Of a stretch of 64,000 bases of DNA, positions 1,520 through 32,613 are shown piece after piece. The position numbers were made by a program, and so were the translations under genes. Each line of letters opens with the position of its first letter. Within the stretch, counting starts at the first letter, position 1. Source of the DNA: a virus; the IMG/VR virus record IMGVR_UViG_3300033146_000857, positions 32,472 through 96,471 of that record; one strand, written 5' to 3'. The notes under the pieces were generated by a model. The model saw only the letters and a list, made by a program, of their open reading frames with translations, made no database searches and had not been told where the DNA came from.

Positions 1520-4500
1520 TTATTCATTTTTATAATTCCTATCATAAAATTGTTCAACTTTTATAGAAGTGTTCTTGTCTATATCAAGGGCCTTAAAAAA
1601 AATATTCTTATACTTAACTGATACTACTTTTATGTCTACTATTTGACCTTCTATAGAAGTACTAAAGGTACCTGTAGTATTCTCTTGACCGGCTATTTCT
1701 ATAGAGGTATTATGCTTGTAAACCCTAATCTCTGAATTAGCCTGTAGATTAGTTAGTTCAAGGACGTAAGGATTTATAAGATTAATAAGTCCTCCTCCAA
1801 GGTTACTAATTTTTGTTGCATTTGAGCCATTAAGATTAGTCCAGTTTAATGTTCCAGAGCCTAGCCATTGAATATGTATAGTGCTTAGAGTATCAAAAGT
1901 AACATTGTCGGCTACCAAGTCTAAGTTTGTTCCAGTTAAGCTTATACAGCAAGGAGCATTAGCTCTATGAGTACCAGCAATATCATCTAGGTCTGATTGA
2001 GAAGTGACAGATATGTCAGACAGTACTCCTTTTTCAAACAGTTTAAGTTTAATATCTTGGTCTGTTATTAAGCTATTGTGCCACATACACCAATTATTAT
2101 AATACCCATTAACACTGGCTACTAAGAGTATTTGTGTGCCCCCTAAGGCCACATTAGCACCGCTTTTGCCAAAGGCTGCTGGAGACCTGGCGGGTAGAGT
2201 GATTATATTAGGAACTACATTAGCACTCTCTAATTGCTTGACCCCGTCGATAAAAGCACTGAATTCATTATTACCTCCAGAGCCATCAAACTTTAGAGTC
2301 AAATGATATATTCTATCTTGAACTAAAGACACATCTCCATAGATTTGTAAAGTTACCGCATCACAATCTAGCTCGAATAGAATGTTATTACCAAAGCCTA
2401 GTATAAAAGCTAATGAGTTTGTTACCCCACCTTCCCCATAGACTCTACAAGGAGGCTGCTGTATCTTGCTAGTCTTAAACCAGCCAGCAATTACTCTTTG
2501 AGTTTGATCAGAATTTGACACTGTAGTTACTTTACCTAAGTCTACAGTGTCTGCAGTAGAACTTGAAAAGATACTTTTAGTCACTCCTGAACATAAGGCT
2601 GGTCCTGTAGCTACACAACCAGTATTTGTGCCATGGGCTGTTCCATAGTCATCAGTATAAACTCCATCAAAAGTGTATAAATGATTTGGTCCTAGAGCCT
2701 GAATTGTTTGTTTGTAGTCTAGTCCTGAGTCATTGTCTGTTATGGTTCCTGTAGCTGTGACCCCTCCGATAATAAGCGTATAAGTCTCAGTTGGCTCTGG
2801 AATAGTATCGTCTACTACCTGTACAATCACGCTGAAAGAACTAACTCCTGATGGGACACTAAGAGTATCTAGGCTAAGGGTTACTCCGTTAGAATAGCTT
2901 ACCGTTCCAATATCCGAGCCGGTAGTTTCATTGTGAGTCAGGCTCATTAGGTATGTTTCAGTAGCTTCTGTAGCATGACTAAGGGTTACTAGATGAACTA
3001 GGTTTAAGTTCTCAAGGTTACTATCATTACTAACAGTTGAGACCGTAGGCTTAACATAAGCGGCTATTATACTTGTGGAATAGCCTGATCCACCAATTCT
3101 TCCAGCTGCTGTCTCTACATATAGATAGACAGTTCCAAGAGACAATGTATCTTGAATACATCTTATGTTTATTTCTGTGTCATTCCAAGTATTAACTGTT
3201 TGTTCTACTAAGATCCCAGAACTGCTAGCTTCAGCATAAGTGTTTTTATTTCCAAGCCATATCTTACCTTGAGCAGCATCAAAAGTAGTACCAGTGACCA
3301 TTAGGTTACTTTCGTTGTTAAAGATATCCCCATCAGCAAAGGCTGTTGTTATTGGTTCTATGTCATCGTTTATAACAGTTCCAGTACCGTAAGTACTATC
3401 AATGTTTAGTCTAAAAGTCTCATTAGTCTCTTGAATTACATCTTGATTAATTCCTAGGGTAATACTAAAAGTTGTAACTCCATCTGGGACGTTTAAGGTT
3501 CCTACTGGACTCTCAGTCACTCCGTTTGAAAAACTAAACCCAGCGTAGTCTTCCGAGTCAAAACCAGAACTAAAGGTATTCATTGAAATAGTGTACGTTT
3601 CTACCCCTTGGGTAGCATGAGTTAGACTTACACCAAATACTAAGCCTGTTCCTTCATTTTCTGATGGACTACTTATTGAATCAATTGTAGGTTTTACGTA
3701 GGGAAGGACTAAATTGAATTGAATGGCCTCAGCATAGGCCGATCCATTGTGACTTTCCTTACTCCAAGTTATTTTAGTGTTTGACACCAAGTCATACCTA
3801 GTTGACCTACAAGATACGTCCCAAGCTTTATTATACTCAGAACTATTATTATGTGCCATCATATGTCCAGCATGAGCTACTGTTCTGTTTAGATCTACGG
3901 CTGTACCAAGGTTTAAATCTCCTGATGACCCAGTGTTTCTAACTACAGCTCCTCTTTGTACTAACAGAGAACTATCTGTTATAACCTGCCAGTAATATGT
4001 ATGACTACCCGAGGTATAGCCTGTAGACACTTCTAGGTTTGTACTAGTAGTTATCCTACCTGCGGAATTACCCTCGTCCTCATATTGATCTTCTATAGTG
4101 GTATCAGACAGGACTAAAAAAGACTTTGCTGTGTCTATAGAGCTAAGAGTTATATTAGCCGGTGAGGCATCACTAGGGGTTACTCCTCTTTGAACTGTCA
4201 AAGTATTATGACTTATCGTATACCAGTGTCCCGATTGAGCCACTCCAGAAGTGTTAACATTAAAAGCTATATTAGTGGTTGTACTTAACCTAGAACTTAG
4301 GTTTACTTGCCTTGGGGCTTTTAGGCTTCCATCTGTGGTCTTTACAAAATGCCAACAGAATGAATTAGCCAATGTTAAAGCACTTAAACTTACATTTTTT
4401 GATGTGTCTGAAGTAGTGAAATCAAAAGTTCCTTTTTGAACAAGGACATCCGCTGCAAGTTCAATAACATAAACAACAACAATAGCTGAAACAGCACTAG

Positions 4501-4708
4501 CTACTCTAGAAACTTTTACACTAGGACCAGCTAGTATCTCTACATCAAAGTTACCATCTTGAGACAATTGTGTGTCGCCACCAAGGCTAGCTGACGCTGT
4601 AAAAGGAACTATTTGAGCTAGGCTAGTAAAACCAGTTAAGCTAGCTGTTTTTGTTGTCTCTGAAGTGCTTAAGTTTAATATTACCTTTTCTAGCTTAACT
4701 ATATTCAT
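1520..4708 (-). CDS. Tail fibre/adhesin-like virion protein with two Calx-beta-like domains and a LamG/concanavalin-like domain
   Basis: 1062 aa, Ser/Thr/Gly-rich beta protein. Two repeats of the type ...VP.GV..FS.....DD...E..ET..L.I....GTGTI.DND; LamG-like GWFKT...YHL.LKFD...AFIDG. RBS CAGGAG. Confidence 0.7.
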   Translation of the reverse strand: MNIVKLEKVILNLSTSETTKTASLTGFTSLAQIVPFTASASLGGDTQLSQDGNFDVEILAGPSVKVSRVASAVSAIVVVYVIELAADVLVQKGTFDFTTSDTSKNVSLSALTLANSFCWHFVKTTDGSLKAPRQVNLSSRLSTTTNIAFNVNTSGVAQSGHWYTISHNTLTVQRGVTPSDASPANITLSSIDTAKSFLVLSDTTIEDQYEDEGNSAGRITTSTNLEVSTGYTSGSHTYYWQVITDSSLLVQRGAVVRNTGSSGDLNLGTAVDLNRTVAHAGHMMAHNNSSEYNKAWDVSCRSTRYDLVSNTKITWSKESHNGSAYAEAIQFNLVLPYVKPTIDSISSPSENEGTGLVFGVSLTHATQGVETYTISMNTFSSGFDSEDYAGFSFSNGVTESPVGTLNVPDGVTTFSITLGINQDVIQETNETFRLNIDSTYGTGTVINDDIEPITTAFADGDIFNNESNLMVTGTTFDAAQGKIWLGNKNTYAEASSSGILVEQTVNTWNDTEINIRCIQDTLSLGTVYLYVETAAGRIGGSGYSTSIIAAYVKPTVSTVSNDSNLENLNLVHLVTLSHATEATETYLMSLTHNETTGSDIGTVSYSNGVTLSLDTLSVPSGVSSFSVIVQVVDDTIPEPTETYTLIIGGVTATGTITDNDSGLDYKQTIQALGPNHLYTFDGVYTDDYGTAHGTNTGCVATGPALCSGVTKSIFSSSTADTVDLGKVTTVSNSDQTQRVIAGWFKTSKIQQPPCRVYGEGGVTNSLAFILGFGNNILFELDCDAVTLQIYGDVSLVQDRIYHLTLKFDGSGGNNEFSAFIDGVKQLESANVVPNIITLPARSPAAFGKSGANVALGGTQILLVASVNGYYNNWCMWHNSLITDQDIKLKLFEKGVLSDISVTSQSDLDDIAGTHRANAPCCISLTGTNLDLVADNVTFDTLSTIHIQWLGSGTLNWTNLNGSNATKISNLGGGLINLINPYVLELTNLQANSEIRVYKHNTSIEIAGQENTTGTFSTSIEGQIVDIKVVSVKYKNIFFKALDIDKNTSIKVEQFYDRNYKNE

Positions 4709-4761: not shown

Positions 4762-6156
4762 CTACAATGGGTTAGAGTAGTTTCTTTCTAAACTGGCAAC
4801 CAAAGATACTGAGTTAGCATTTGATCTACCAATAGCTGAAGTAGCTTTTACATACTGAGCTTTATCAAGCCCAATTGCTACAACTGTAATAGCAGCGTCT
4901 TGAGCTGCTGTTCTTCCACCTTGAACATTTCCATCATAGTCAAATGTAAAGGATATACTTCCAGAAGCGATAACTCCAGAGATATCAACACCGGCATTAT
5001 CTTTAACAATTAGAGCATCAGAGTCACCAAAGTTATTTCCATTAGCATCTGTAAAGAACATTCTATAGACTGCTCCAGAGTCATCTACCAAGTTCTGATT
5101 GAAGTTTATAGTTCCCGCTGCCATGAATGGGAACGTTCTTTTAGTGTTAGTTGAGTCATAAAACTCGATTCTATTGATATCCGTACTTGAGAAGTCATCT
5201 ATAAATACTCCTTGAGAAGTAACTAAAGTATCACCTACGAACTTAAGTAAACTATCAGCTGTGTTACCTGAGACACTACCAGCACCTGCGTCTATATCAG
5301 AAGTCTGTCTTAGTGAATACTGTACATATTCATAAATTTCCTCTGCAGTAGGCAAGCTACCATTGTCGGCTACATCAGCATCAATTATAACATCAAAGTC
5401 ATAGCTTGAAGCTCCAATGGTTCTACTTTGAGCTGTACTGTAGTAAGTAATGTTCATGTCTGTATAAGGCAAGTTACCGGCTACAGCAACATCATTGTTT
5501 GTAATCTTAAGATCAACACTATTTTGAAGAGGAAAACGATACGCTTGGTAGTTGAACTTTGTAAGACCAATGTCTGAAAGCTGTGACTGAGCGTATTGTT
5601 TTTGATACTCACGAACGAATATTTTAAAATAGTCACCAGTAGCTGAACTAGTTGCGTTGTCTATACCATGTCCACCACCATCTCCAAAATACTTGACGCA
5701 CTGATTAACAACACCAGTTAATACTATGTTAGTAGAACTTCCATCAGCTACTTGTTGAAAGTAAACTTGATCACTACCCCCTAGAGCACCTAGAGTAATA
5801 ACTCCTGCGTATTCTTCAGCTGATGAACCATCACCATTCTTTATAGCATACCCACCATCTCTAAACAAATCTGATGTATTCTTACTAGCTGGTGCCCAGC
5901 CGTCAACAAATTCAAATTGCTCTGGTGTAATTGCTACCATAGGGAAAGGAAATTTAATCAGATTTGCATCAGATTTCCATTCCTCTTTTAAGTATGAGTA
6001 TACTGCTTGTAAACTTACACCATCTGTTGTTAATGCTCCATGTGCTGCTAAAGAAACACTTAAAGCTGTTGTGTCTATCCAGATACTCCCGTCTGTGCCT
6101 AACTGTCCTGAGGTAGAACTTCTAACTAGACTATCTGGGTCGGTTATTTTTGACAT
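4762..6156 (-). CDS. Putative virion structural (tail-associated) protein
   Basis: 464 aa acidic, Gly/Ser/Asp-rich; strong RBS AAGGAG; directly upstream of the adhesin-like genes. Confidence 0.55.
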   Translation of the reverse strand: MSKITDPDSLVRSSTSGQLGTDGSIWIDTTALSVSLAAHGALTTDGVSLQAVYSYLKEEWKSDANLIKFPFPMVAITPEQFEFVDGWAPASKNTSDLFRDGGYAIKNGDGSSAEEYAGVITLGALGGSDQVYFQQVADGSSTNIVLTGVVNQCVKYFGDGGGHGIDNATSSATGDYFKIFVREYQKQYAQSQLSDIGLTKFNYQAYRFPLQNSVDLKITNNDVAVAGNLPYTDMNITYYSTAQSRTIGASSYDFDVIIDADVADNGSLPTAEEIYEYVQYSLRQTSDIDAGAGSVSGNTADSLLKFVGDTLVTSQGVFIDDFSSTDINRIEFYDSTNTKRTFPFMAAGTINFNQNLVDDSGAVYRMFFTDANGNNFGDSDALIVKDNAGVDISGVIASGSISFTFDYDGNVQGGRTAAQDAAITVVAIGLDKAQYVKATSAIGRSNANSVSLVASLERNYSNPL

Positions 6157-6240: not shown

Positions 6241-7338
6241 TTAAAATGTGTAACTCAGCTTTATCAACACATGTTTATGGTCTGTTCTGTGTCCAAGAGG
6301 GCTTAAACCTGTACTTTCTAAATATTCTAGATGAACTCTTGATCTCTTATTGTATACGAAGTCTGAATAAATTTTATAAGATATCTTATCTGTCCCAAAA
6401 GAATTATAGTCATTCTCCCATAGATCTCCAAAGATAAAAGATGTATAGTCTTCGTAAGTTTTAAACTGTTCAACACCGATAGACACTTCCTGAAGCCATA
6501 TCTCTGTGTAATATTTTAGGCCTATTAGACTTGAGTAACCTGTGAGGTTATCTTTAAGAGCTGGTAAAGGTACTGTGTTATCTAGTAGTTTTCTATGGCT
6601 ATACCCTAGTACTGTATAGCCAATAAAACCTGAGTTTAAAGAGTCATCAAATGAGTAACCAAGTCCTATAAGTTCTGTTTTAAACAATTCTTTAGGTCCC
6701 CCAAAGTTAGGTATAGCTAATTTAACTTTAGTTAAAGCTTCTATGTAGTTTAGTTCAAAGAAATGCCTTCCATAGGAATATTCAAGCGCCGAGAATAGCC
6801 CTCCTGAACCGTCGAATTCATCAGATATCTTAGTCGTTCTGCCTAGAGTATCTTGGTCTACAAAGGCCTTTCCTATTTTAAACCTCAAATCTTCATAGGA
6901 TATGACTATGAAGCCTCCTAGGCCTGTGGTGTCTATTAGCGTAAACAACATATTTCCTTGTATTTCGTCTGACTTTGAGTATTGCTTAAAGTTTCCTCCA
7001 GCTAGCTGTATTACTCCATAGACAAGATCAACACTAAGCTTACCTTTGGTTAAGACCCTTCCTTGTAAGTAAAGTCTGGTTAGCATTAGCTCACTTTTTT
7101 CACGACTGCCATGCATGGAATAAAGACCAGTAGCATAAGAAGAACTAGTAGTCCTAGCTTCGAAACTCCCCTTAAGACTGAGCCTACCAGCTTGTATGTC
7201 TGTATGATTTCTTAAACCTGCGGAGTAGAACTGCTGCCCATTAAAGGCTCTATAGGCTGAGAATATCTCCGACTCTGAGGTTAATTCTGCGAATAGACTA
7301 GTATAGCCTAAGATTAAGCATATAAGTATTTTATTCAT
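6241..7338 (-). CDS. Outer-membrane beta-barrel (porin-like) protein
   Basis: Sec signal (MNKILICLILGYTSLFA), many amphipathic aromatic-rich strands, C-terminal BAM beta-signal ...LIKLSYTF. Confidence 0.7.
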   Translation of the reverse strand: MNKILICLILGYTSLFAELTSESEIFSAYRAFNGQQFYSAGLRNHTDIQAGRLSLKGSFEARTTSSSYATGLYSMHGSREKSELMLTRLYLQGRVLTKGKLSVDLVYGVIQLAGGNFKQYSKSDEIQGNMLFTLIDTTGLGGFIVISYEDLRFKIGKAFVDQDTLGRTTKISDEFDGSGGLFSALEYSYGRHFFELNYIEALTKVKLAIPNFGGPKELFKTELIGLGYSFDDSLNSGFIGYTVLGYSHRKLLDNTVPLPALKDNLTGYSSLIGLKYYTEIWLQEVSIGVEQFKTYEDYTSFIFGDLWENDYNSFGTDKISYKIYSDFVYNKRSRVHLEYLESTGLSPLGHRTDHKHVLIKLSYTF

Positions 7339-7344
7339 CTCTTT

Positions 7345-7593
7345 TTACCTCATTTTTCTGTTATTAGTATTTTTGGCTAAGTCTTTTAGCTCTTCTAGGT
7401 ATAATTCTAGTTCTATACTATTAAGTTCTATAGAATATGTCTGTCTTTTTGAAGGACTTGATAGTACCCTTGCCCAACCTAAGTAGGTTTTGCTACCTAG
7501 ATCAAGCCCTTCTAGGGCTAGCCTTTCTTTAATAGCTGTTACTCCTGAAGCGTTACAGAAAGTTAACAGTATGATTATAAACAGCTTTTTCAA
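7345..7593 (-). CDS. Small secreted/periplasmic protein
   Basis: 82 aa with signal peptide MKKLFIIILLTFCNA; starts 1 nt after the kinase stop; RBS AAGGAG. Confidence 0.7.
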   Translation of the reverse strand: MKKLFIIILLTFCNASGVTAIKERLALEGLDLGSKTYLGWARVLSSPSKRQTYSIELNSIELELYLEELKDLAKNTNNRKMR

Positions 7594-7594
7594 C

Positions 7595-8884
7595 TTAACT
7601 CCTTTTTACAGGTATTATAATACTGACTACAGTACCAGTAATACTAGTCTTGATTATATTTATGTCTCCGCCTATAGAAGTTACTAAATGTTTATTCAAA
7701 TACATCCCATTACCTCTGGTTATCATAGAACCACTTTCTTTTGTACTATAGTTTGGCTCAAATATTTTATCTACTATATCTTCTTTTATACCATTACCAT
7801 TGTCCTCTAGGTTAAAGGTTAGGTACCTACCTCGCAGGCTAACAAAGATTATCTTTATGTCCGTAGCACACGCTTCAAGAGAATTTTTCAAATGGTTAAT
7901 TAAAATACTTCTTAAACCACTAGCCCTTAGATCCTTGCTGTCTAGGTCGAACACTTTGAGTCTTTCGTCTACTGAATATTTAAAAAGATTATTAGAAATA
8001 GCTACCATGCCAAAAGAGTCCGTTACTGAGTCATAGACATTTTTTGCTCCACTGTTTAGTCTAATCTGTTTAAACTTACGCATTTTGCCAAGAACTCCGA
8101 AGATTTGATCTATGGATAATTTTATAAACTCAAAGTCTTTTTCTAAACCTACAAGTTTTTTATTAAGCGCTAGTCTGTCGGCTGATAAGGGTCTAAAACC
8201 ATTCTCTTTGTCTTCTAAGATTAGGTATCTATTTATTAGTCTGTGTATTTTTTCTATTTTGTTTTCGACTACTTCTATGGGCGTGTTCATTTCATGATGA
8301 GCATGCTCTGTCATTAAAGATATAGACTTGTTGTTTAATAGAGCCTCAGACCCAGATAGTTGGACTAAAAGTTCCAATCTTTCTTTTTCAAAAGCACTTC
8401 TCATTACTCTTAGAAAGATAAAAAATACAAAGACTGAAACTATAGCATACATATAGAACAGGTTTATAAGATAGTTTGTAAAAGTTAGCCTAAAGAAAAT
8501 ATGCTTATCAGTTTTGTTAAAATCATCTATTTGGATTAATATACTATTTTGGTTGTAGTAGAGTCCATCGGTTATTCTTAGAAGGTCTATTTTTCCTAGG
8601 TTAATTGGTCTAAGTACACTAGCTACATTTCTATACCTAGCTATCATCTTTCCACTCTTACGGTCTATGATTAACACTTCTTCACAGTCAACTAGTCTAC
8701 ATAGGTATTCTATGTCAACTATTTCAAACTCATAGGAGTAATCCTGTAGTTGTTTTATTGCAAATAGACTATAAGAGTATATAGTATTACCTATGTTAAG
8801 AATAAAGGTTAGAAATAGTAATGTTGCTACACTGAGCAAGGCTTTAAGGTGCTTTCTAAACAGCCATCTTAGGTAATCTTTCAT
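7595..8884 (-). CDS. Membrane sensor histidine kinase (HisKA + HATPase_c)
   Basis: Two TM segments flanking a ~100-aa periplasmic loop; H-box HAHHEMNTP, N-box LINHLKNSLEA, G1 DNGNGI, F-box IFEPNYSTK, G2 RGNGMY, terminal GTVV. Confidence 0.92.
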   Translation of the reverse strand: MKDYLRWLFRKHLKALLSVATLLFLTFILNIGNTIYSYSLFAIKQLQDYSYEFEIVDIEYLCRLVDCEEVLIIDRKSGKMIARYRNVASVLRPINLGKIDLLRITDGLYYNQNSILIQIDDFNKTDKHIFFRLTFTNYLINLFYMYAIVSVFVFFIFLRVMRSAFEKERLELLVQLSGSEALLNNKSISLMTEHAHHEMNTPIEVVENKIEKIHRLINRYLILEDKENGFRPLSADRLALNKKLVGLEKDFEFIKLSIDQIFGVLGKMRKFKQIRLNSGAKNVYDSVTDSFGMVAISNNLFKYSVDERLKVFDLDSKDLRASGLRSILINHLKNSLEACATDIKIIFVSLRGRYLTFNLEDNGNGIKEDIVDKIFEPNYSTKESGSMITRGNGMYLNKHLVTSIGGDINIIKTSITGTVVSIIIPVKRS

Positions 8885-8888
8885 AAAT

Positions 8889-9467
8889 TTAGTCTTTGAA
8901 CAGAGTTGCGTGTATGTAGGCTCTTCTAGGATCCATGGTTATTTCTGTTTTGTAAAGAACCTTGTCCTCTAGATTAAGCTTTGTCACCTGGTTATACTGG
9001 TCTATAATATTTTTTATAGGATTAATTGGATCACTGATAAGATTTCCAGTATAAAAGAAATACTTAACTAGTGGGTTAATCTCATGTAGTACCTCAAAAA
9101 CGTCCATGCCTGTAAGTCTGATGTTACCCTCTGGGGTTAGGATGCTTCCACCAAGTGTTAGATCTATTATAGCATAGTCTATGTTTAAATCAGCATGCTC
9201 TTTAACTAGGGTTAAAAATTCATACACTGCGTGTTCTCCAACGAAAGATAATATATTATACTTTGATTCATCCATGTCATAGTCTTCAAAAATAGTCTCT
9301 AGGTCATCTTCTAAAAAAGAGACTATGCCTGCATTATCGTCTATCAAGAGTATAGTTTTGTTATTAAAGTCAAAATCACTAGGTAACTCTCTAGTATATT
9401 CTAAGTCTGATGGCCTTAGGCTTTCATCGCCTAGTTTAAACACTAGGTCTAAAGGTGATAGTTTCAT
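8889..9467 (-). CDS. Stand-alone response-regulator receiver (REC) protein
   Basis: ILLIDDN acidic pocket, YAIIDLTL phospho-acceptor Asp, TGMDV, FFYTG Thr, VLYKT Lys; no obvious DNA-binding output domain. Confidence 0.82.
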   Translation of the reverse strand: MKLSPLDLVFKLGDESLRPSDLEYTRELPSDFDFNNKTILLIDDNAGIVSFLEDDLETIFEDYDMDESKYNILSFVGEHAVYEFLTLVKEHADLNIDYAIIDLTLGGSILTPEGNIRLTGMDVFEVLHEINPLVKYFFYTGNLISDPINPIKNIIDQYNQVTKLNLEDKVLYKTEITMDPRRAYIHATLFKD

Positions 9468-9976
9468 TTTGGGACTCCTAAAAGAATATTCATGACTGTA
9501 AGTAGTGTTGGCCCAGCCAGTACTAACACGATGCTCACACAGACTGTTATTACTGTGATAAACAATAGCTTAGAACTAGTGATTAAAGCATACACTTTAC
9601 CAAAACTTGGTAAAGACTTTTTCTTTGGTTTTAAGAGCTGTTCAAGCATTTCTTTAGTAAGGCTAAGATCTGAGCTAGTGGTTTTTCTAGCTTCTAGATC
9701 TTTGATCAACTTGTCCATTAAAGCTCTTTTTGTTTCTATGATCTCTTTTAGAGTATCATACACTAAGTCTCTAAAATGGCTATTCTTAGTTTCTAGCTTG
9801 TCATTTATAGCCACAATAAACTGAATAATTTCTTTCTGTTCAGAATGGTCACTCATAAGGGCCATTAATGCTTTATGAAAGGTAGCTTGATCAGACCTAC
9901 CAAGTTTACTCATTTGAACGTCTAAAGTTTTTAGGGCACTAGATAGTCTAACATCTAGTTGTTGAAGTTCTTTCAT
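9464..9976 (-). CDS. Coiled-coil protein with C-terminal transmembrane segment (lysis-module associated)
   Basis: Helical, charged N-terminal part plus hydrophobic LLFITVITVCVSIVLVLAG; 4-bp ATGA overlaps with both neighbours. Confidence 0.6.
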   Translation of the reverse strand: MKELQQLDVRLSSALKTLDVQMSKLGRSDQATFHKALMALMSDHSEQKEIIQFIVAINDKLETKNSHFRDLVYDTLKEIIETKRALMDKLIKDLEARKTTSSDLSLTKEMLEQLLKPKKKSLPSFGKVYALITSSKLLFITVITVCVSIVLVLAGPTLLTVMNILLGVPK

Positions 9977-10590
9977 ATTTGTACCTTAGCACTTTTTTGA
10001 TATCTTCTGCTCATTGCTTTGTCTGAAAACCAGAATGAAATTACTGTAGAAGCTGCAAATAGTATCAGTTGTAAAGCTGGTTTAATCACGGCTAACATTA
10101 AGTTCTCTGTTCCAAAGTCGTCAAGTAGGTATTCCTCTAGGGCTGTATCTATAATTACCATTACATACCATACTATGCCTATTGTAAGCACAGGTCTTAT
10201 AAGACCTCTTATAGCGTCCATAGCCAGTAAGTGTAAGTAGATTAAAGGTCTAAATACTAGCCCTATCTTAGTTTTATCACTTATCATCATCTTAACTACA
10301 TCGTCTTTAAGGTACTTGCCAGTTAGTCTCTCTATAAGTCCTGCTCTATTAGTAGCTTCAGCTGTGTCTGCTGCTGCTTCCTCTAGGCTTATGGCTCCTT
10401 CAGTTATTACTTTATCAACTTCTATTTGAGCTTTTATTTCATTTAAGTTAGCTTCACTTTCGGCTTTGAACTTCTTTAGTTCAAACTCGTTCTGTTCTTT
10501 CTGTTGTTTATAGCCGAACCAAGTGGCAAAAATAGAAGTAACTGATCCTAAAAGGCCTCCACTTAGTATGTTAGTAAAAAAGTCCATCAC
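9973..10590 (-). CDS. Putative holin-like membrane protein
   Basis: Hydrophobic N-terminus, coiled middle, IRPVLT-TM...TM-FWF plus basic tail, as in 3TM-holin-like phage proteins; adjacent to the endolysin-like gene. Confidence 0.6.
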   Translation of the reverse strand: MMDFFTNILSGGLLGSVTSIFATWFGYKQQKEQNEFELKKFKAESEANLNEIKAQIEVDKVITEGAISLEEAAADTAEATNRAGLIERLTGKYLKDDVVKMMISDKTKIGLVFRPLIYLHLLAMDAIRGLIRPVLTIGIVWYVMVIIDTALEEYLLDDFGTENLMLAVIKPALQLILFAASTVISFWFSDKAMSRRYQKSAKVQI

Positions 10591-10596
10591 ATCCCC

Positions 10597-11037
10597 TTAT
10601 ATGTTTGATATTATGAGCTTAAATGGCTCATTTTTTGTTAGTTTATTCATCTCTCTTATTGCTTGTCTACTTCTAAACACGCATCTTTGCATTTTTCCGT
10701 GTTTGTTTTTAGCTCTTCCAATAGCTTTACCTAGAGTTATACACCCCTGTAGGTGCGTCTGCCACCCAAGCTTAGCGTCTCCTGCAAAGTTAGCCCCGTG
10801 AATAAGTATAAAACTTCTTTTAGACACTTCTTGTATATGGTATAACTTTTTCTTAAAGTGCGGAGAATATCTTAATTTTACGTGGTACTCTCCAGTAGGA
10901 ATACAACTTAGGTTAGGCTTATTGTCTCTATCTGGTAGTTCTAATGAATTCCAAAACATACCATTGTTAGCCAGTATACCAAAAGTCCCCTCTTGAGTAC
11001 TTTGTAGTCTATATAAGTATAACGTTTTCATACACAC
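10597..11037 (-). CDS. DUF5675 family protein (putative endolysin, L,D-transpeptidase-like)
   Basis: Pattern GTFG.L....SLELP..DN....SCIP.G.Y...SPHF...V..RS.ILIH.AN......GCI.LG. Confidence 0.8.
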   Translation of the reverse strand: MCMKTLYLYRLQSTQEGTFGILANNGMFWNSLELPDRDNKPNLSCIPTGEYHVKLRYSPHFKKKLYHIQEVSKRSFILIHGANFAGDAKLGWQTHLQGCITLGKAIGRAKNKHGKMQRCVFRSRQAIREMNKLTKNEPFKLIISNI

Positions 11038-15760: not shown

Positions 15761-16307
15761 TAGATGCTCCTATTTGTTGGTTAACTAAGACTGTTGGTTG
15801 AAAATATTCCTTGAACTTAGCACTAAGTTCAAAAAAGTTGTTAAACTTATGGTCTAATTTTAAAGTTCCATCCAGATAATGAACTCTGTGGGGTATTCTT
15901 AAACCGCTTGAAAGTATACTACTAGTAGTAATATCGAAAGTATTATTTTCATAAACTAGGTTATTTCCAAGTAAACTATGAGATAGCCTTCTATTTATGT
16001 CAAAGGTGTTTTCACCATAGAACTTTGCCTCATGAGGGTACTTATAAGATAGTCTATCACCAGTTTGGTCATAGACTAATTTCATACTAGGATGAATTTG
16101 AGTAACAAGATCAAAAGACTCTTCCTCAACCAGTAGTTCTTCTAGGTAGTTCTTAAACTCATGATCGATCAGTCCAAAGTTTATCTCCCACTCTACATAG
16201 GGTACAGTAGTGTAATTGTCTACTTTTACTCCGTCTACTAATAAAGGATTTTTACCCATATTTATCGTATATCTTAGATCTGAGTATAAAAATGTGTCTA
16301 TCACCAT
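15735..16307 (-). CDS. Putative distal tail protein
   Basis: First gene after the tape measure (TAATG overlap), 190 aa; positional inference. Confidence 0.5.
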   Translation of the reverse strand: MVIDTFLYSDLRYTINMGKNPLLVDGVKVDNYTTVPYVEWEINFGLIDHEFKNYLEELLVEEESFDLVTQIHPSMKLVYDQTGDRLSYKYPHEAKFYGENTFDINRRLSHSLLGNNLVYENNTFDITTSSILSSGLRIPHRVHYLDGTLKLDHKFNNFFELSAKFKEYFQPTVLVNQQIGASSASNFRDC

Positions 16308-19300
16308 TACAGGTACTCCTCGAAAACTTTTTTAACTCCATTTGCTATCATAGGAAGATTTCTTTCTATTGAAGCTAAAGAAGCATCTGGAGCCACTGGG
16401 ATGGTAATGTTAAAATTATTACCACTGTCCTGACTCACTTGATTGTTACTACTGCTTATAGTGTTTATATTAACCTTTGGTATACTCATGGTTGATTTAT
16501 TTAGACCATTAAAATAGTCCGCACCTAAAGCTCTAACAGTCTCTTTTCTTACTACGGCTTCTCCGTCCTCCAATAACGTAGGTCTTCTGTCTCCTCCGCC
16601 GTAGCCTGGTAAAACTCCTCCAGTAGACATGCCGACACTACTACTATGTCCAGCTATGTTACTACTGGCTGCTATTGTTCTTGCAGCTCTTGCTGATGCT
16701 GCTCTTGCTCTGGCCAAATCTCTATTTAAGCTAGCCATAGCTTGACTCACGGATCTGGTCATGGTTCTGGCTGCCTCGTTAGCTCCCTTAGTAACGTCTC
16801 TCCCTACAGAGCTAAAACCTCGGTTTATTGAAAGAGTACTAGTTTTTAAACTTCTAGTTAGCCAGTCTGCTTGTTTAGTAAGTTCTGCCGCCATTGGCTT
16901 ATAGAAATTTTTATTCTTAATGGCTTGAGTAGTCTTTTCTCCAGTTTTGTCTACTAGATCAACTACTGCTTTGGAAGTTTCATCACTAGTCTTAGATAGT
17001 CTTTTTACTAGGTTTTCTTTTATGTCTTTTAACTTTATGGTCCCTTTTTCAAGTCCTGCTATAAGTTGTTCAGCTGTTGTGGCCCCTAGGTCATTAGCCA
17101 CTTTTTGTAGCATTTCGTTATTAAAAAGATTTTGAAACACAGATTGCATTTTGTCATTGATATTCTCAGTATTAACGTCTACCTTTTGTAGGGTAGTTTG
17201 TATAGAGTCTTCTATTTTTTGTTGCAGAATAACAGCATCAAAAGTAGCTACTTTCATAGAGTCTCTAAAAGACTCTTCATATTTATTGGCCATAGCTATG
17301 GCGTCAAAGGTAGCTAATGCTACTGCATCAATTTGACTTTGTTCTAAGGCCTCTTTAGACTGTTCAACGTCTATAGCTAGTGTATTAAGCATTTCAGTTA
17401 GTTGTCTGCCTAGGGCCGCACTTAGTCTATCAGAGTTAATCTCCATGCCTTCTAGGTTAAAACTCAACGCCCTAGCTAAATCAGCTTTAGCATCTGCTGC
17501 ATGAATTGCTATCTGTCTAAATGAGTCTCTAACAGAGTCTGCTATCTTAGTCATATTTTCTGAGAAAGAAATGCCTAGTTCTTCTAGTTGTCTAGCTGTA
17601 TTTCTATTAATGTCTTCTATGCCCTGCTCAAACCCGCGAGCTATGTCCTCTAAACCAAAGCTTTTGCCAATGCCAAGTTCTTCAGTCTTTATGTCTTTGT
17701 TTATTTGAATATCTTGCATGGACTCAGCTAATTTTATACTTAAGTCTTCTAAGGCTCTTTGAAAGTCTAAAGACAATTTTGTCATATTTCTGTTAAATTG
17801 AGTAGCTATGTCAGAAAGATCTCTAGAGTACTTTCTATGAGCATCCTGTAGATCATAGGCTAATTTTATTCCAGCGTCTCTTATACTAAGGTCATATTTT
17901 AACATGGCTGTTTGTAAGTCAAATAAAGCCGCGCCCATTTCTCCTTTAGCCCCTGTTACATCTCCAACTGTGGTAGTAGTTCTGTAAGCTCCATTAGCTG
18001 CTCCATAGAGCAAGTCTACTAGCTGTTCTATAGACACTGAGTTTCCAGTTGCTGCAGATGCTGCTGTAGGTGCAGTCTCTGGGGCTGCTACCATTTCCTT
18101 CATATACTCTGGGTCTGTTAGAGCTCTAGTTGCATCAAAACTGAACCCAGCTTGAGCCTTGGTTACTCCCTGATCAACGATTACGTCTATAAGCTTGTCT
18201 GAGTTTTTATCCATATAGTCTAGATAAGTCTTATTAAAGATTTCACTGTTTACGTCTCCACCAGCCACTTTGTAAGCTTCTTTATAAGCTTCTTTTACCA
18301 GATCTTCTTTTGTTTTGTTTATATTTATCCACTGTTTAATCGCAGAAGTATTTTCACTAAGTTTAGCTTTATTAGCATCCATAGCTAGACTAATATTTGA
18401 CATCTTATCAGCTAAGCCTAAGAGAGTATCAGCATTTACAGTAAGCACAACTGGCTTTTGTAAGTTTCGGCTAAATAGCGTGTTAGTGTCGGCTATAGCT
18501 CTGTTTATAGCCGCAAGAGTTCTACCGTAGTTTCTGTTTAGGTCATTAACTTGCCTAGCATAGTTCTTTCTAGCATCATGTCTAGCTTGGTTAGTGCTAG
18601 TCTTTAAGTCTGCTACTGATCTTCTAAAGTTTATCCCAACTTGTTTAAGACTTCTAGCATAGTTTAATAGTGCACTAGCTTGTTGGTTTTGAACACTTCT
18701 ATCTAAAGCTTGTATGTTTCTATTATAGTTTCTATTATTAGCTTCTACTTTTCTTTCTTTAGATATGCCTAAGTCTTCTACAGAATACTCTTTTGAACGA
18801 CCAATTTTTTGCCCAGAAAAGCCTACATCTCTACGTAGGTTTCTCTCTGAAGAAACTCTATTGATGGTAACGTCTCTCCTGGATCTGTCTGTATTAAGAT
18901 TAAGCTTATCTAGATTAAATCTGTACTGCCTTACTGCGTCTTCACGTTTGTTTCTAGCACTTATGTTAAGTTCTTGCTGTTGGAATGCAACCTGACGTAT
19001 CTTAGCTTCCTTAATGTTAGCTGTTCTTATGTCTAGATTTTTAATAGCTATCTGCTTAGTTAGTGTCTGTCTATTTCTGTAATCTTCGCTCATATTATTG
19101 GCTAGCCCTGACCTATCGGTCATGTTAACTATGTCTGAGGTACTCATACTACTAACTGTCTTAAAGCTGTCTTTGGCTATGTTAGCATTTCTAAGAGTTC
19201 TATTAAGACCTTCTGCAAATCTATAGTTCTTAAGATCTTTAGCTTTTGTTATGTCTCTTTCTAGGCTTAAGTTATCTACAAAGTCACTAATAGCTGTAAG

Positions 19301-22300
19301 TTTAGCTATGTCCATTTTTCCAAGTTTAGTAGCTAGTTCTTCCATTGGCTTAAGCATTGTTACTCCACCGGCTGTCTTCACGGCCTCTGGATCTTCATTA
19401 GATAATACTTGCTTGTGTAGTTTGTCTGGGTCTGCTTGACTTAGTAATTTTCTGTACTGTTTATCTCCACCTAGTCTGTCATCTAGAACACTCGCAAAGG
19501 TATCTCCAATGCTCTTACTAAAACTTTGATCATTTGTAAAAGTATCCGCAGCAAGCTTATTAGCAAATTCTGACAAGTCTCCTCCAAGAGACCTGTTTAG
19601 GCTTGTAAAAGTAGACCTTATCTGACTGTCCATTTGTTTCAAAGGAACTTGCATAACTTTACCAAGTTTATCAGCTAAGTTTTCTAGCTCTCCTTTGTCC
19701 GAGAGTAGTTTTGTATATCCCCCTTTGTCAGCTAAGACTGTATCGGTTCTTTCAGATATCTCTTTACGATTTGCATAGAACACAGACTCTTTACCATTTG
19801 ACGCTATATCTTTCTGTACCTGACCTAGAATCTCTAGGTCATTGGTTGCTAATACAGCTACATTTGCTAGATGCTTATAAGATTTTTGCATGTTTGTGAT
19901 AACACTTTTTAATTCTTTATCACTTAGCTTATCTTTATCTTTTGTCTTATTATTAAAGCTTATAGCTTTATCAGATATTGCTTGGTCAAAATTTTGTTTA
20001 TTCTCTGTGGCTGCAATTGGGTTAAGCCTAACAATCTTGGCTATTGCCTTTGGTAAAGCACCAGTTAAAAGGATACTTTCTACTGATGCTTTATTAGTTA
20101 CTTTGTCTACCTCTTCTTGTTTAGCTACTGAGTATAATTTTAAACCACTTAAAAAATTATCCTTAACACTAGTTGTATTGGCTTTTGCACTTAGCTCTTT
20201 GAACTCTTGTATATTTTTTAGTAGTTGTTTTTGATTATTCCCAGCTAAGTCTAGTCCTTTTATAAAAGAGAAATTTTCATCTAAGTAGTTATTCAGGTCT
20301 GCTATCTCAGAACTGTACTGTTTCTCCATTTCTAGGGCTTTTTTACGGGATATTAGGTTCTTTTGAGCATTACCTGCCTCTATTTCAGAATTCTCGGCTA
20401 AAACACTCTTTAGCTCTTCTCCTGATAAGTCTGTAGTATTCTTTGTCTTTTTTAAGACTAGGGCTTTATCTTTAGATATTCCTGCATAAGTTTTACCTAA
20501 GTTACTTTGAAGTTCCGAATAAGCCTCTGCAGTAGTTGCCATGTGCTCGAATACTTGTTGAGAATTAAACCCAGCATCTTTTTCTGCACTTAGAGCTACG
20601 CTTCTATCTATACTGTCGTTTACTCCAAGTCCTTCTGATATCATTCCAGCACTTAGGCTACCAAGGACTGCTGCTACGGGTATACCAAGTCCAGTTGCTC
20701 CTGCCATAGTTGCACCAGCACCAGCTAAAACTCCACCAATAATACTTGGTGCTGCTTTAAGCATTGAGGCCCAGAAAACAGAACTTTCAACGTCCTCGTT
20801 TTCTGTTTCTTCATAGGCTTTTTTACCTAAGCTCCATGACTGAGCCGCTGTAGTTAATACAGCCAATGCTGGTAGTTTTGGTATTTTACTTGTCCACTTG
20901 CCTACGAAACCTGTGAAAGTCTTTATAGAAGGAGTTAGTTTTCCAACAGCCTCACCTAATGATTTAGTCAGCCCTGGAGCCATTTTAGCCATCTTATCTC
21001 CAGCAGTTATACCAGCCAAGCCTACACCAGTGCTTAAAGACCCCTTAGATAAGTAATTTGCCCCATAGATTCCGGCTGCAGTTAAGCCTAGCATTAAGCC
21101 ACTGGTCTCACCTTCTGGAGGTCTAAAAGATTCTAAGTAGTCTTCTTTTGACTTGGCATACATTGGCTTCTTTTTTACATCTCCTTCTAAGGTTAGTTGT
21201 TTAAATAGATCTCCTGAGCCATCTAGAGAACTTTCTAGTTGTGAATAAAAGCCTATTGACCAGCTATTTATCATGTTCTTAAATCTGTTCTTTGTTGAGC
21301 TAAGTTGAATTTCATTTGCATCTTCTGCAGCTGATGTGCCTATTATGCTAGACCTAAAAGCATCTGCTTTGTCTATCTGGTTTGATATGGCTGCATAGGC
21401 AGTTCTTTCTCTAACTTCCATACCTCTTGTGGCGTGCTGAAAAGTGTACCCAGAGTCTTTCATAAACTTAAAGACTCCAATTACTCCCTCATCATTAAAA
21501 ACCTTATTAAAGTCTTTAAGAGAGATATTAGCTGCTTTCAATGATTTAGCAAATTTTGCTGAAGGAGCTATAATGTCAGAAAATAACATTCTTTGTCCAG
21601 TACCTAGAGTAGAACCTCTCTTTATACCTGCGTCTTTCATAAGAGACGTAAGTGTTAGTACATCTTCTACAGGTATATTACCTTGAGCTGCGATGTTACC
21701 TGAATATTGTAAGGCAAGTCCTAGTGAATTTATATCAAGTTTAGACTTGTTAACTGCTGCTGTAAATTGATTAGCCACTACTTCTGACTCAGAGAAAGAC
21801 TTATCCCAAATGGTTAAAGCTGATGTAATAGTCTGAGTAGAATCTTCTAGAGATGAACCTGTTGCTGTTGCCAGTTTAACTACACCACCAAGTGACCCAC
21901 TAATACTGTTAGCTGTATAGCCTGCTTGTCCGAGAATAGTCGCTGCATCTGAGATCTCTGAGGCCGAAAACTTAGTAGTCACTGCTACTTTTTTTACAGA
22001 GTCTGTTAGTAATCCCATTTCTGTACTAGATGACCCAGTTATGGCTTGTAGGTTCTTTAGCCTGTCTTGAAACTCTACAGCACTACCGAGGGTTCCGGTT
22101 ATTAAGGCTGTGCCTGCTCCAAGTGCTGCGTATGATCCCATGAAAACTGCATTGTTCATCATCTGCTCTTTAAAGTTATCAACCCTGTTAGCTGCTTGAG
22201 CTTGTAAGTTTTTCTTACCAGAGTAAACATCTCTTGTAGCATTTAGTTTATCTTTACTTTGTTGAGAGTTATTTAATTCTTGGTCTATAGATTGTATATG

Positions 22301-25300
22301 ACCTAGGGCACCCAGCACTTGAGTAGTCTCCCCAGCCCCTTTTGTTTGATAAGTCTTAGCTTTACCTATGTCAGCAGATAGAGATGCTATTTGTTTTTTG
22401 TCTAGGCTTAATTTAGTTCCATATTTTTTAGTAAACTCTTTTTCATTAAGACCTGTAAGCTTTCTAACAGGCTCTAAATTTTCATTAAGCGCATTTATCT
22501 CTTTTGAAAGATCTTTTAGAGGTTTAAACACTTTAGATAATTCTTGAGTAGCTATAGACGATCCAAGTTGGTTTGATACTGCATTTTTCTCTGTCCCGCT
22601 AAGTTTGTTATATTTATCTACAGTAGTCTGCTTGACAGTCTCCCCAGCTATTCCTGAATTAAACACTTCTTCTATGACTGCTTTAGCCGGATTATTTTCT
22701 TCAAAAGCACTAACTATTAAATCTTTCTGAAGCTTAAATAATTCTTTCTGCTGCTTTGTCCCTGCAGTCATAAACATAGCACTCTGGTTTATATTTGACA
22801 CACTTTGGCGCCTATCTGAGTGTGTTGATATATTTTTTGGGTCTATAAGTCTTTTACCCCTTAAGTGTCCTTTAATGTCCCCTTCGCCCACGATTTCTGA
22901 ATAACTGCTAATTTGTTCTCTTCCAGCCTGTTCTAATGTTTCGTTTATATTCTGCTTAGCATCTGCTTTACTTTTATTCTCTGTAGTTTTACCTTTGTCT
23001 CCATTTTTCTTCTTTTGTGAGGCTATTAAGTCTTCTTTTTTCTCTGATTCAGACAGATAGTTATCCATAAGTTTTGTAACATCATTAAGCATGTCGTTAG
23101 GATCTAGGTCTAGGGGTCTAAAGGTGTATTTTGACTTGTCTTTCTTAACTTGTTCTGTCCAGTCTTTCCAACCGGTAACCAAGCCTCCAGTTTCATATTT
23201 GCTAAACTTACCTTCCGCTGCGGCCGATTGAAATCTGTCAAAAGAAGCTTTATCAGTTATGCCTAGACTTTTTGTTGTCTTCTGGTTTAGGACCGACTCA
23301 CCTTTCATTAGAAGTGCTGGTACTTCATCTTTAGTTGACTTACCAGGAATAAACCCTCCCTTAGCGAATTTTAATACCCCTCTAGACCTAAATGGAATTT
23401 TACCTTTAAGACTCTTATATTTAGCTTGTGGAAGAACTCTATGCCAGTTGTTATATATTAAATTATCTTCATCGTCTAGTAGGGTTCTTAGAAACTGTTG
23501 TTTTCTTTTAAAAGCTGTCTGTTTACTAACATCTTTAAGTTCTTCTTTGACATTACTAAGTTTTATCGCTTCCAATCTAGTATTTTTACTGGCCTTAGTT
23601 TCAGTAACTAAACTGTTAAATTTTGCATAGGCTCTATCAAGTGTTTCTTTTGTTGCTTCTGGTTGATAGTTAGCCTTAAAGTAGTCATTGAAACTTTCTC
23701 GTTTCTTTAGTCTTTTTTCTTTTTCCAGGTTAATTTTATCAAGTTTATTTCTGTCTTCTCTTGTTTTTCTCTCTTTAAAGAGTTCATCCGTATTTGTCAC
23801 TACCGTTGGATCTAGCTTTGTATTACTTGAAGCTTGAGTCTTATGTTTAGCTAAAGTCTCATCACTGAGAGTTCCTGCTTTTTTATTTACGCCCTCTCTA
23901 CCGGGTCTTAGCGCACTAGTCTCTTCAGAATTTATAAGCTCTTCCATAGAAACCATCTTACCTCTTACGGCTCTTTTCTTATACTTATCCTCTATGTTTA
24001 TCTGGCCTATTCGTTCATTTAACTCCTCAGAATAACTCTCTCCTAGTACATGATTAGCTTTTGACTTAGTATGATACTCTCCTAAGCCTGTCTTAGCTAA
24101 TCTTTCATTTAAGCCATGGTTAAAAGCACTAGATATTTGCCTAATCTCATTTGTGCTGTACTCAAGATTACTATCTAAGTAAGGAGTCATACCTTTAAAA
24201 GTTTCCTTAGTATTCTGTCTTAGAGCTTTTCTATACATATTAGCTATAGTTTTCTTAGGATCTTTCCATACTCTTTTTAGCGTCTTAGCTTCTTTACCAT
24301 CAGTCAGTCTCTGTGTGTAACTGTTTACTTGGTCTATTACTCTTAAAGCCGCCGCTTGTTGTATAGGATCTTTGTGTAGGTCTTTTGCCATGCTTGCAAT
24401 AGCCTTTGCCATTATAGGTATCTGTACTCTATCAACCCCCATACTAGGGCCTATGGCCTGTAGCTTTTGCATCACTCTGCTATATTTTGTAACAAATCTG
24501 CCCATTTGGTCTCTGTCCGACATACCCTCAAGTCCCAGACTCTCAGTTGCTGCTTTTAGTTGTTCTTTCTTTCCTCTAGCTGAATTGGCTTGTTGCTCAT
24601 ATTCTATTTTTCTAAGATATGAACCTTTATATTTTTTAGTTTTATAAGTATCCTTGTCTATGAGCCCTGGGTTAGTTGGAACTATGTAGTCTTCTGGATG
24701 TCTATTCTCAAATAGACTCTTTCCAAGTTGTAAAGAGTCTATGTCATCAAAAGGTACGTTAGCAATTCCACCATGAGCTCTTATAAGACTCTCTACTTTA
24801 TTAGCTTGTATATATTCCTCTTTAGTTAGACTTTTCAGCTCTGTATACTTTCCTGATGCTTCTTTTGATAGTTCTGTTTGAGGGCCTCTTAACCTTTTTA
24901 GTTGTTCTGGATGCTGAGTTTTTATTTGCTCGTTTTCAAGAGTATAAAAATCTGCCATTTCTGAGGCATATCCAATTTTATTTCTACTTAAAGCTTGAAC
25001 TAAAGCATTACGTTTTTGCCATGCCCAGTCGTCCTTATAATTTTCTCCATTCCAATGATTAAACCTTACTCTTCCAGAACTACCCTTTAAGCCCCCAAGA
25101 TTTGATGTACCTTGACCTTTTGCGTAGTCTTCAGCTATCTTAGCTTGTGCTATAAATTTACCTGAGGTTCCTTGATTACTTGTAGATACTGTATTCCAAT
25201 CTTTGTTATAATCGTAATTTGCCTGTAGGTCATAGAGCTGACTAAATAGGCTTTTATAAAAAGTGGTTCCAAGTTTATCTTGCCCAGGTGATGAGGTCAT

Positions 25301-32232: not shown

Positions 32233-32613
32233 TTAAATTAAGAAGAACGCAGAAAATTCATCACCATCTGCCGCCGCTGCTGTTAGAGCTACACATTTTG
32301 TAGTCATCACCTCTGTTGTTACTGCTTTAACTTTGTCACTACCTGAAGGTACTACTGCTGCGCCTGCTACGATAGCTGCACTTGCAGTTATCTTAACAAC
32401 ACCAGAAAAGTCAACTGTAACAAAATTGTCACTAGTTACTGTCTTCAAAGTTCCGAAAAACTTTGCATTTGCTGGAGCAGCTACAACTCCACCAGTAGCG
32501 TCTAGAGCAACTAATTTGCCTAAGTCACTAGCTGTTAACGCACCTGCGTTTGGAAGAGTTAAAACTCTTTTTAAGCCGTATTGTCCATCTAGTCTAAGAT
32601 TTGGGTATGCCAT
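32233..32613 (-). CDS. Capsid decoration/cement protein
   Basis: 126 aa Ala/Gly/Val-rich, ...ASAAIVAGAAV...VALTAAAADGD, immediately upstream of the MCP. Confidence 0.7.
   Translation of the reverse strand: MAYPNLRLDGQYGLKRVLTLPNAGALTASDLGKLVALDATGGVVAAPANAKFFGTLKTVTSDNFVTVDFSGVVKITASAAIVAGAAVVPSGSDKVKAVTTEVMTTKCVALTAAAADGDEFSAFFLI

Follow-up and report, generated by a model that had tools for sequence, protein, structure and literature searches.

A phage-restricted two-component cassette with envelope accessory proteins, joined in one phage to candidate lysis genes

The window analyzed here, a stretch of 64,000 nucleotides from the virus record IMGVR_UViG_3300033146_000857 of IMG/VR (positions 32,472 to 96,471 of that record), carries on its minus strand a compact block of seven genes that includes a histidine kinase, a stand-alone receiver, and several proteins of the cell envelope. 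The viral genome is complete (96,471 bp, with direct terminal repeats), and the window is its final 64 kb. Genes for a major head protein, a portal, and a large terminase are present, the terminase having only ∼33% identity to terminases of Pseudomonas and Vibrio phages. A search of the phage genome for a tyrosine integrase found none, and a DNA search of GenBank phages gave zero matches. An earlier note on this DNA, made from the sequence alone, had described seven minus-strand genes separated by gaps of at most 6 nt or by ATGA overlaps, and all of the open reading frames (ORFs) and junctions were found as described. The ORFs run from position 11037 to position 6241 and encode, in this order, proteins of 146, 205, 170, 192, 429, 82, and 365 residues, with junctions of 6, −4 (ATGA), −4 (ATGA), 4, 1, and 6 nt. 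The nearest genes on either side lie 62 and 84 nt from the block, the GC content of which (0.335 to 0.358) is inside the range of the remaining window. Promoter and terminator scans gave scores no better than those of shuffled sequences.

The kinase, HK429 (7595..8884; 429 residues), is a membrane histidine kinase and the product of the sole HATPase_c gene in the genome. Its HATPase_c match (8.7e-13; 49.1 bits compared to a Pfam cutoff of 26.4) is accompanied by an H-box (HHEMNTP, residues 196 to 202) and by N (330), G1 (DNGNGI, 361), F (375), and G2 (RGNGM, 390) boxes. H196, H197, E198, T201, and P202, together with the N, G1, F, and G2 boxes, are invariant across 32 kinase homologues, so that the earlier description of a kinase with all boxes intact holds for the whole family. 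The H-E-x-x-T motif suggests that the kinase may also be a phosphatase. Two transmembrane segments (residues 13 to 31 and 139 to 157) enclose a periplasmic loop of ∼107 residues that carries C62-x4-C67. Pfam HisKA (PF00512) did not match HK429 at an E value of ≤0.1, and the helical region is specific to the family. Metagenomic protein sets contain ∼50 full-length homologues with 33 to 40% identity, and a single-protein locus search with HK429 returned no close relatives.

The product of the gene preceding the kinase gene, REC192 (8889..9467; 192 residues), is a divergent stand-alone receiver without an output domain, as indicated by its family profile, conserved residues, and a confident structural model. 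Pfam Response_reg does not match the window protein itself and is reached by 8 of 90 members of the REC192 family (best, 3.2e-5), which comprises 168 representative clusters. In an alignment of 90 family sequences D43, G120, and K173 are invariant and D44, D102, and T140 are present in at least 90%; D102 is the predicted phospho-acceptor. When the family profile was compared with the PDB, CheY and Spo0F chains came first (∼1e-3). The AlphaFold2 (AF2) model (pLDDT 91; pTM 0.87) has the (beta-alpha)5 fold, and its top Foldseek matches are all receivers (Spo0F, PorX-REC, CheY, and RcsB-REC; E values of 3e-5 to 4e-4), while viral structure libraries yielded distant receiver analogues only. An extra hairpin follows D102, and there is an N-terminal extension. 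Family profile, D-D-D-T-K residues, and model agree on the stand-alone receiver without a DNA-binding domain that had been proposed. Most members of the family are 30 to 60 residues longer than the window protein, with an N-terminal amphipathic helix of the M-x-x-F-x-K-K-L-F type and often a CxxC before the receiver domain; this Cys pair is lacking in the window REC192.

A profile-guided scan of IMG/VR provided 26 other viral loci (cited by L numbers), which together with the window gave 27 loci for comparison. The receiver gene adjoins the kinase gene in 24 of the 26 other loci, and of the two exceptions, one is truncated by the end of its contig. Upstream of the receiver gene in the window, 9464..9976 encodes cc170, a tail-anchored inner-membrane coiled-coil protein of 170 residues in which a helical cytoplasmic domain of ∼125 residues is followed by one transmembrane segment (residues 136 to 154) and a short tail. 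In iterated profile searches, a member of the cc170 family immediately preceded the receiver in at least 21 of the 27 loci. No known family was identified for cc170 in Pfam, PHROG, and further family searches, it has no known fold, and a word-based search returned one homologue. A search with the closer cc170 subfamily, a narrow method, found no stand-alone cc170-type gene and returned only cassette-bearing contigs. Pairwise distances of cc170 co-vary with those of the receiver (r = 0.47) and the kinase (r = 0.43), and Mantel r values within the triad of cc170, receiver, and kinase are 0.43 to 0.51 (P < 0.001). Because the three sets of distances co-vary, the triad is taken to be inherited together as a unit. 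The conserved partner in the cassette is cc170 and not the holin-like protein that is encoded upstream of it in the window.

Directly after the kinase gene, 7345..7593 encodes sec82, a small secreted (periplasmic) protein of 82 residues that represents a new family. It has a signal peptide, and the 13 family members share invariant G39, W40, and R42, with a Cys pair in many of them; these features uphold the secreted protein recognized earlier. Searches of Pfam and the PDB found no relatives of sec82. A weak lead to PG_binding (score, 0.82) was dropped when Pfam and PDB profile searches did not support it. A spanin role was also considered and rejected, for cc170 because its transmembrane segment is C-terminal rather than N-terminal and it has no lipobox, and for sec82 because it has no conserved lipobox; one cassette locus (L027) has separate Rz-like spanins beside the cassette, which likewise argues against a spanin role of either protein.

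The last gene of the block (6241..7338) encodes barrel365, a protein of 365 residues that is predicted to form an outer-membrane, porin-like beta-barrel of 16 strands. It has a signal peptide and the C terminus ...SYTF, and other barrel candidates end in F or Y in 10 of 10 cases, all but one of them in Phe and that one in Tyr. The 16-strand AF2 model (pLDDT 81) was matched by Foldseek to C. jejuni MOMP, OmpC/F-type porins, and OmpM1 (E values of 1e-10 to 1e-8; TM scores of 0.5 to 0.6). Pfam, NCBIfam, and PHROG searches gave no match and thus no described porin family, and a word search found a single non-self homologue. The outer-membrane barrel of the earlier note is therefore supported by the signal peptide, the C-terminal Phe, and the model, but not by membership in a Pfam porin family, and the term porin applies at the level of the fold only. 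In one of the other loci the barrel gene is present as two ORFs of 129 and 244 amino acids (L004:10865-11998), possibly through a frameshift or through decay of the accessory module.

A sec82 gene follows the kinase gene in 13 of the 27 loci and a barrel gene is present in 10 or 11, accompanying sec82 in 10 of the 13 sec-bearing loci, and approximately half of the loci keep the triad without either gene. The pair is an optional add-on of the cassette (about 10 to 13 of 27 loci). Every locus in which sec and barrel genes are clustered has a kinase with a periplasmic loop of 93 to 121 residues and a C-x4-C. L027, which has sec82 and an unclustered barrel-like ORF, has a loop of ∼126 residues without the Cys pair, and L012 and L013, which have neither gene, have a kinase loop of only 27 to 28 residues. 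This pattern, which is a correlation only, is in agreement with the view that sec82 and the barrel serve the periplasmic sensor.

A small, Sec-exported protein whose gene directly follows that of a sensor kinase could also be an exported signal. According to this population-sensing explanation, sec82 would leave or enter cells through the phage barrel and be read by the kinase of neighboring infected cells, so that infection density would set the timing of lysis. The frequent company of sec82 and barrel, and the co-variation of sec82 distances with those of the barrel (weakly; r = 0.28; P = 0.05), the receiver (r = 0.42), and most of all cc170 (r = 0.66), can be counted in its favor. However, sec82 and kinase distances do not co-vary significantly (r = 0.09), although co-variation would be expected of a signal with its receptor, and this weakens the case. 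In addition, sec82 shows no evident processing motif, its folded domain of ∼60 residues is large to pass through the pore of a 16-strand porin, and the loci that lack sec82 and barrel keep the triad all the same. Phage-to-phage signaling through sec82 is thus considered improbable.

The five genes for cc170, REC192, HK429, sec82, and barrel365 are a phage-restricted cassette that consists of the triad and the two-gene add-on. The set is maintained in many large phages that are unrelated to each other, and its flanks are wholly different between contig groups. The kinase was not found among 50,697 GenBank phage records, and in 185,579 species genomes it had four matches, all on 1.4- to 6.7-kb contigs of metagenome-assembled genomes (MAGs) from four unrelated phyla. 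Short contigs from unrelated phyla are the pattern of misbinned viral DNA. None of the families of the receiver, cc170, and sec82 carries a cellular annotation, and literature searches found no description of the cassette. The search of phage and host genomes for conserved synteny that the earlier note had proposed therefore found the cassette again in at least 26 further viral contigs and showed it to be essentially absent from cellular genomes.

The same evidence bears on the possibility that a host chromosomal two-component operon was captured recently and passively and has no phage-specific role. One protein-database homologue labeled as a Bacteroidales MAG might be taken as a sign of such an origin. 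However, the best non-self kinase identity is only ∼40%, the GC content is not anomalous, and three of the families are without cellular annotation. The specific scenario of a near-identical host operon that is missing from related phages is contradicted by the recurrence in viral contigs and by the limitation of the cellular matches to four short MAG contigs. Passive host capture is accordingly regarded as scarcely credible.

Several loci depart from the arrangement in the window. In L008 (9236-9832) and L015 (9041-9652) a membrane protein of ∼200 amino acids with no known family is encoded between the receiver and the kinase, and both loci are without the secreted protein and the barrel. In L019 (8174-8978) two canonical single-domain receivers directly follow the kinase (Response_reg, 2e-9 and 9e-5), which suggests a multireceiver relay; the same contig also encodes an SmpB homologue (2e-51). 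A ClpX-like AAA+ ATPase with a C4 zinc finger is encoded divergently upstream of the cassette in all four of L004 to L007 (for example, L006:7362-8600; AAA_2, 2e-23; zf-C4_ClpX, 5e-8), and its start faces the cassette in L004, L006, and L007. A second triad in the same order, unrelated by BLAST and with 4-nt overlaps, is present on a 204-kb viral contig (L095:3893-6158). It encodes a 92-amino-acid coiled-coil protein with a C-terminal transmembrane segment, a 132-amino-acid stand-alone receiver, and a 531-amino-acid multipass kinase (H-box HELASP), and it lies just upstream of a homologue of the protein that is encoded directly after the barrel in the window (p464, described below).

In the window, the cassette is preceded by two genes with candidate roles in lysis. 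The first (10597..11037), which is outside the conserved cassette, encodes a DUF5675 protein of 146 residues that matches Pfam PF18925 (6e-25) and phrog_1501 (1.4e-21) and has an H-x18-GC motif at residues 80 to 99, in keeping with the catalytic His...Gly-Cys. DUF5675 has been grouped structurally with C82 (YkuD-like) peptidases and treated as a candidate lysin (2026 preprint). The complete genome contains no PF00959, PF01464, PF01510, or PF13539 protein, and with these four common endolysin families missing the DUF5675 protein is the best candidate for the endolysin of this phage. The endolysin-like gene of the earlier note is therefore retained, as a candidate by sequence. The second gene (9973..10590), which starts 6 nt past the end of the first and is particular to the arrangement in this phage, encodes hol205, a putative holin of 205 residues. 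It has three C-terminal transmembrane-like segments (residues 109 to 184); its only match is phrog_6637 (function unknown; 4.5e-14), and the label holin remains positional. No homologue of hol205 was found in the other cassette loci, and a single-protein search of viral contigs gave no close relative.

Other cassette loci have lysis genes of other kinds nearby. A GTA_holin_3TM holin (Pfam, 3e-14; PHROG holin, 1e-28) lies directly upstream of the cassette in L012 and L013. An Rz-like i-spanin with a lipobox-bearing o-spanin candidate adjoins the cassette on its upstream side in L010 and on its downstream side in L027, and an M15-type endolysin (phrog_465) is 2.4 to 3.2 kb away in L015, L019, and L027. 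In order to reduce the bias of searching near the cassette only, whole records were searched for phrog_465, PF11351, PF13539, PF00959, and PF01510. Among the 11 records in which the position of a lysis gene could be established, 7 had it within 4 kb of the kinase, compared to 0.84 expected at random (P ∼ 3e-6). When the records were counted by subgroup, a lysis gene was near the kinase in 5 of 6 (P ∼ 1e-4), and position-blind family matches alone were within 4 kb in 5 of 10. The association of the cassette with lysis genes is strong and not obligatory, since lysis genes are also found far from the cassette and other flanks have no recurrent lysis family.

A number of points weigh against a role of the cassette in lysis. 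In four records (L008, L021, L024, and L025) the endolysin or holin is 83 to 114 kb from the cassette, and 18 loci have no recurrent lysis PHROG in their flanks, which contain ClpX-like ATPases, nucleases, and structural genes instead. The DUF5675 and holin-like genes of the window were not found at the other cassette loci. Ascertainment bias and relatedness between contigs are not entirely removed from the enrichment test. Genes that border lysis cassettes are often unrelated cargo. Furthermore, the cc170 family has no invariant residue and no known fold, so that cc170 could be a modulator of the kinase instead of its output. Against the weight of distance it can be said that lysis and lysis-inhibition genes are scattered in T4-like phages and that distance alone therefore does not exclude a lysis role. 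Fusion into a lysis operon, as the earlier note had it, thus describes this phage, with its coupled junctions, and not the cassette in general, given the records with distant lysis genes. The proposed link to lysis survives as proximity to nonhomologous holins, spanins, and endolysins, and not in the form of conservation of the particular holin and DUF5675 genes seen in the window.

These observations are also those on which a different output of the cassette would be argued. The cassette could be a working phage sensor with a target in host physiology or in a different phage process (for example, superinfection exclusion, envelope remodeling, or the draining or feeding of host phosphorelays), and the barrel would then alter outer-membrane permeability or mask receptors. 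Its lysis neighborhood would result from late co-expression and from the tolerance of lysis-cassette borders for cargo, as in the case of the phage porins Lc and NmpC and of lambda Bor and Lom, which are cargo genes near lysis or tail genes. The distant lysis genes, the lack of conservation of the window lysis genes, and the mixed flanks, with ClpX-like ATPases in L004 to L007, replication genes, and structural genes, all speak for such an output. On the other hand, three nonhomologous kinds of lysis gene adjoin the cassette, in five of six subgroups and far over chance, and in the window the genes are translationally coupled rather than set apart as a separate transcription unit. The phage has no tyrosine integrase, so that the logic of lysogenic conversion fits poorly. 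An output other than lysis is the chief alternative and is considered a serious possibility that nevertheless falls well short of being probable.

The motifs, models, and synteny establish that the phage-borne kinase-receiver pair is genuine and intact and is accompanied by envelope-spanning accessory proteins, and the cassette is very probably a working phage two-component system with a nontranscriptional output. That this output is the timing of lysis is a more tentative proposal, for which the chances seem close to even but on the lower side. According to this proposal, late in infection barrel365 and sec82 would relay an envelope or periplasmic cue to the 107-residue periplasmic loop of the kinase, which would phosphorylate D102 of the receiver or set its phosphorylation state. 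As REC192 has no DNA-binding domain, the receiver would act through protein contact at the inner membrane, most likely via cc170, and the end effect would be to advance or delay the triggering of the holin. The cassette would then do by phosphorelay, and with unrelated parts, what lysis inhibition does in T4. In this phage, gap and overlap junctions couple the cassette translationally to the candidate endolysin and holin. We infer the cue, the phosphotransfer, and the output alike.

A wider form of the proposal is that large lytic phages of diderm hosts carry a trans-envelope chain of porin, periplasmic adaptor, kinase, receiver, and tail-anchored effector, which reads an envelope or extracellular cue in the course of infection and sets holin firing by phosphorylation, as a lysis-inhibition-like circuit with an origin independent of RI and RIII of T4, and which moves as a module among unrelated jumbo phages. 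At present we consider this rather unlikely.

The cassette can be compared with several known systems. It resembles HisKA-type two-component systems, such as those of CheY, Spo0F, and DivK, in its membrane kinase with H, N, G1, F, and G2 boxes and H-E-x-x-T motif, its stand-alone (beta-alpha)5 receiver with the D-D-D-T-K quintet, the adjacency and co-inheritance of the two genes, and presumably in an output by protein contact. In contrast to classical two-component systems, it is phage encoded and essentially absent from cells, the HisKA model and, for the window protein, the Response_reg model are below threshold, the receiver has the hairpin after D102 and the N-terminal extension, and there is a fixed tail-anchored partner with an optional secreted protein and porin. 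This is a two-component system whose architecture is specific to phages and includes three new protein families.

The Rcs envelope-stress relay, in which the lipoprotein RcsF with outer-membrane barrels signals through IgaA to RcsC, RcsD, and RcsB, has a similar layout, in which a trans-envelope chain leads from an outer-membrane barrel and its small partner through a kinase of the inner membrane to a receiver. In contrast to Rcs, which is host encoded and transcriptional, the cassette is phage encoded and is without IgaA, Hpt, or a DNA-binding regulator, sec82 is not a conserved lipoprotein, and no homology was detected. The Lc porin of PA-2, the NmpC porin of DLP12, and Lom and Bor of lambda are single genes of temperate phages that are homologous to host porins and have no kinase or receiver. 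They share with barrel365 the location of a phage-borne, 16-strand porin-like barrel near lysis and tail genes. Barrel365 differs in that it has no Pfam porin match, occurs only with the sec gene and kinase of the cassette, and belongs to a phage without a tyrosine integrase.

T4 lysis inhibition is carried out by the holin T, the periplasmic antiholin RI, and the cytoplasmic RIII (PMC11413866). The proposed function of the cassette is similar in that periplasmic or envelope sensing late in infection would shift holin triggering and in that a small Sec-exported protein is combined with a factor on the cytoplasmic side. None of the seven proteins showed homology to T, RI, or RIII in Pfam or PHROGs. 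Whereas T4 relies on direct binding of the antiholin, the link in the cassette would be phosphotransfer, and the cassette includes an outer-membrane barrel. A precedent for phosphorelay-controlled lysis is available in CckA, which controls the release of gene transfer agents (PMC5026251). In that system lysis and the release of a phage-like particle are modulated by a histidine kinase phosphorelay, as lysis would be by the cassette, and the holin that adjoins the cassette in L012 and L013 is of the GTA_holin_3TM family. However, the CckA relay is host encoded, essential, and transcriptional, through a DNA-binding regulator, whereas the cassette is viral and without DNA-binding output.

Divergent receivers of jumbo phages, designated cREC, have been reported never to occur with histidine kinases and to be tied to NAD/ADP-ribose enzymes (PMC7824862). 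REC192 is likewise a divergent receiver domain in large phages, but it adjoins a kinase gene in nearly all of the other loci, as described above, and because cREC is reported never to accompany kinases the two are different things. Peptide communication similar to arbitrium, which uses a short processed peptide, an intracellular receptor, and a lysis-lysogeny output, was also considered and rejected: the phage has neither such a receptor nor a tyrosine integrase, sec82 comprises a domain of ∼60 residues, and sensing would be by a membrane kinase.

Further genes of the window lie outside the block. Directly after the barrel gene, p464 (4762-6156, minus strand; 464 amino acids) has homologues in 79 viral loci, with up to 73% identity, and these are often followed by a relative of the 1,062-amino-acid protein that is encoded in the window at 1520-4708 (minus strand). 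The regions upstream of the p464 homologues in the 79 loci are unrelated between phages and are not shared with the window; the pair thus looks like an exchangeable tail-fiber module. Between head and tail genes, 16307-27748 (minus strand) is occupied by one ORF of 3,813 residues, which encodes a putative giant virion or tail-associated protein.

The analysis provides a genomic context for three previously unannotated families, the tail-anchored partner, the periplasmic G-W-x-R protein, and the phage porin-like barrel, and it shows that receivers and kinases missed by Pfam are undercounted in phage genomes. The lysis-timing decisions of lytic phages are understood mechanistically in few systems, chiefly holin clocks and T4 lysis inhibition. 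As the parts of the cassette are small, intact, and reconstitutable, the question of its role in such decisions is directly testable. If the proposal is correct, the phage-restricted cassette would represent a new class of device for decisions during infection, given its recurrence in many large uncultured phages, the absence of a DNA-binding output, the fixed membrane partner, and the frequent location in lysis clusters.

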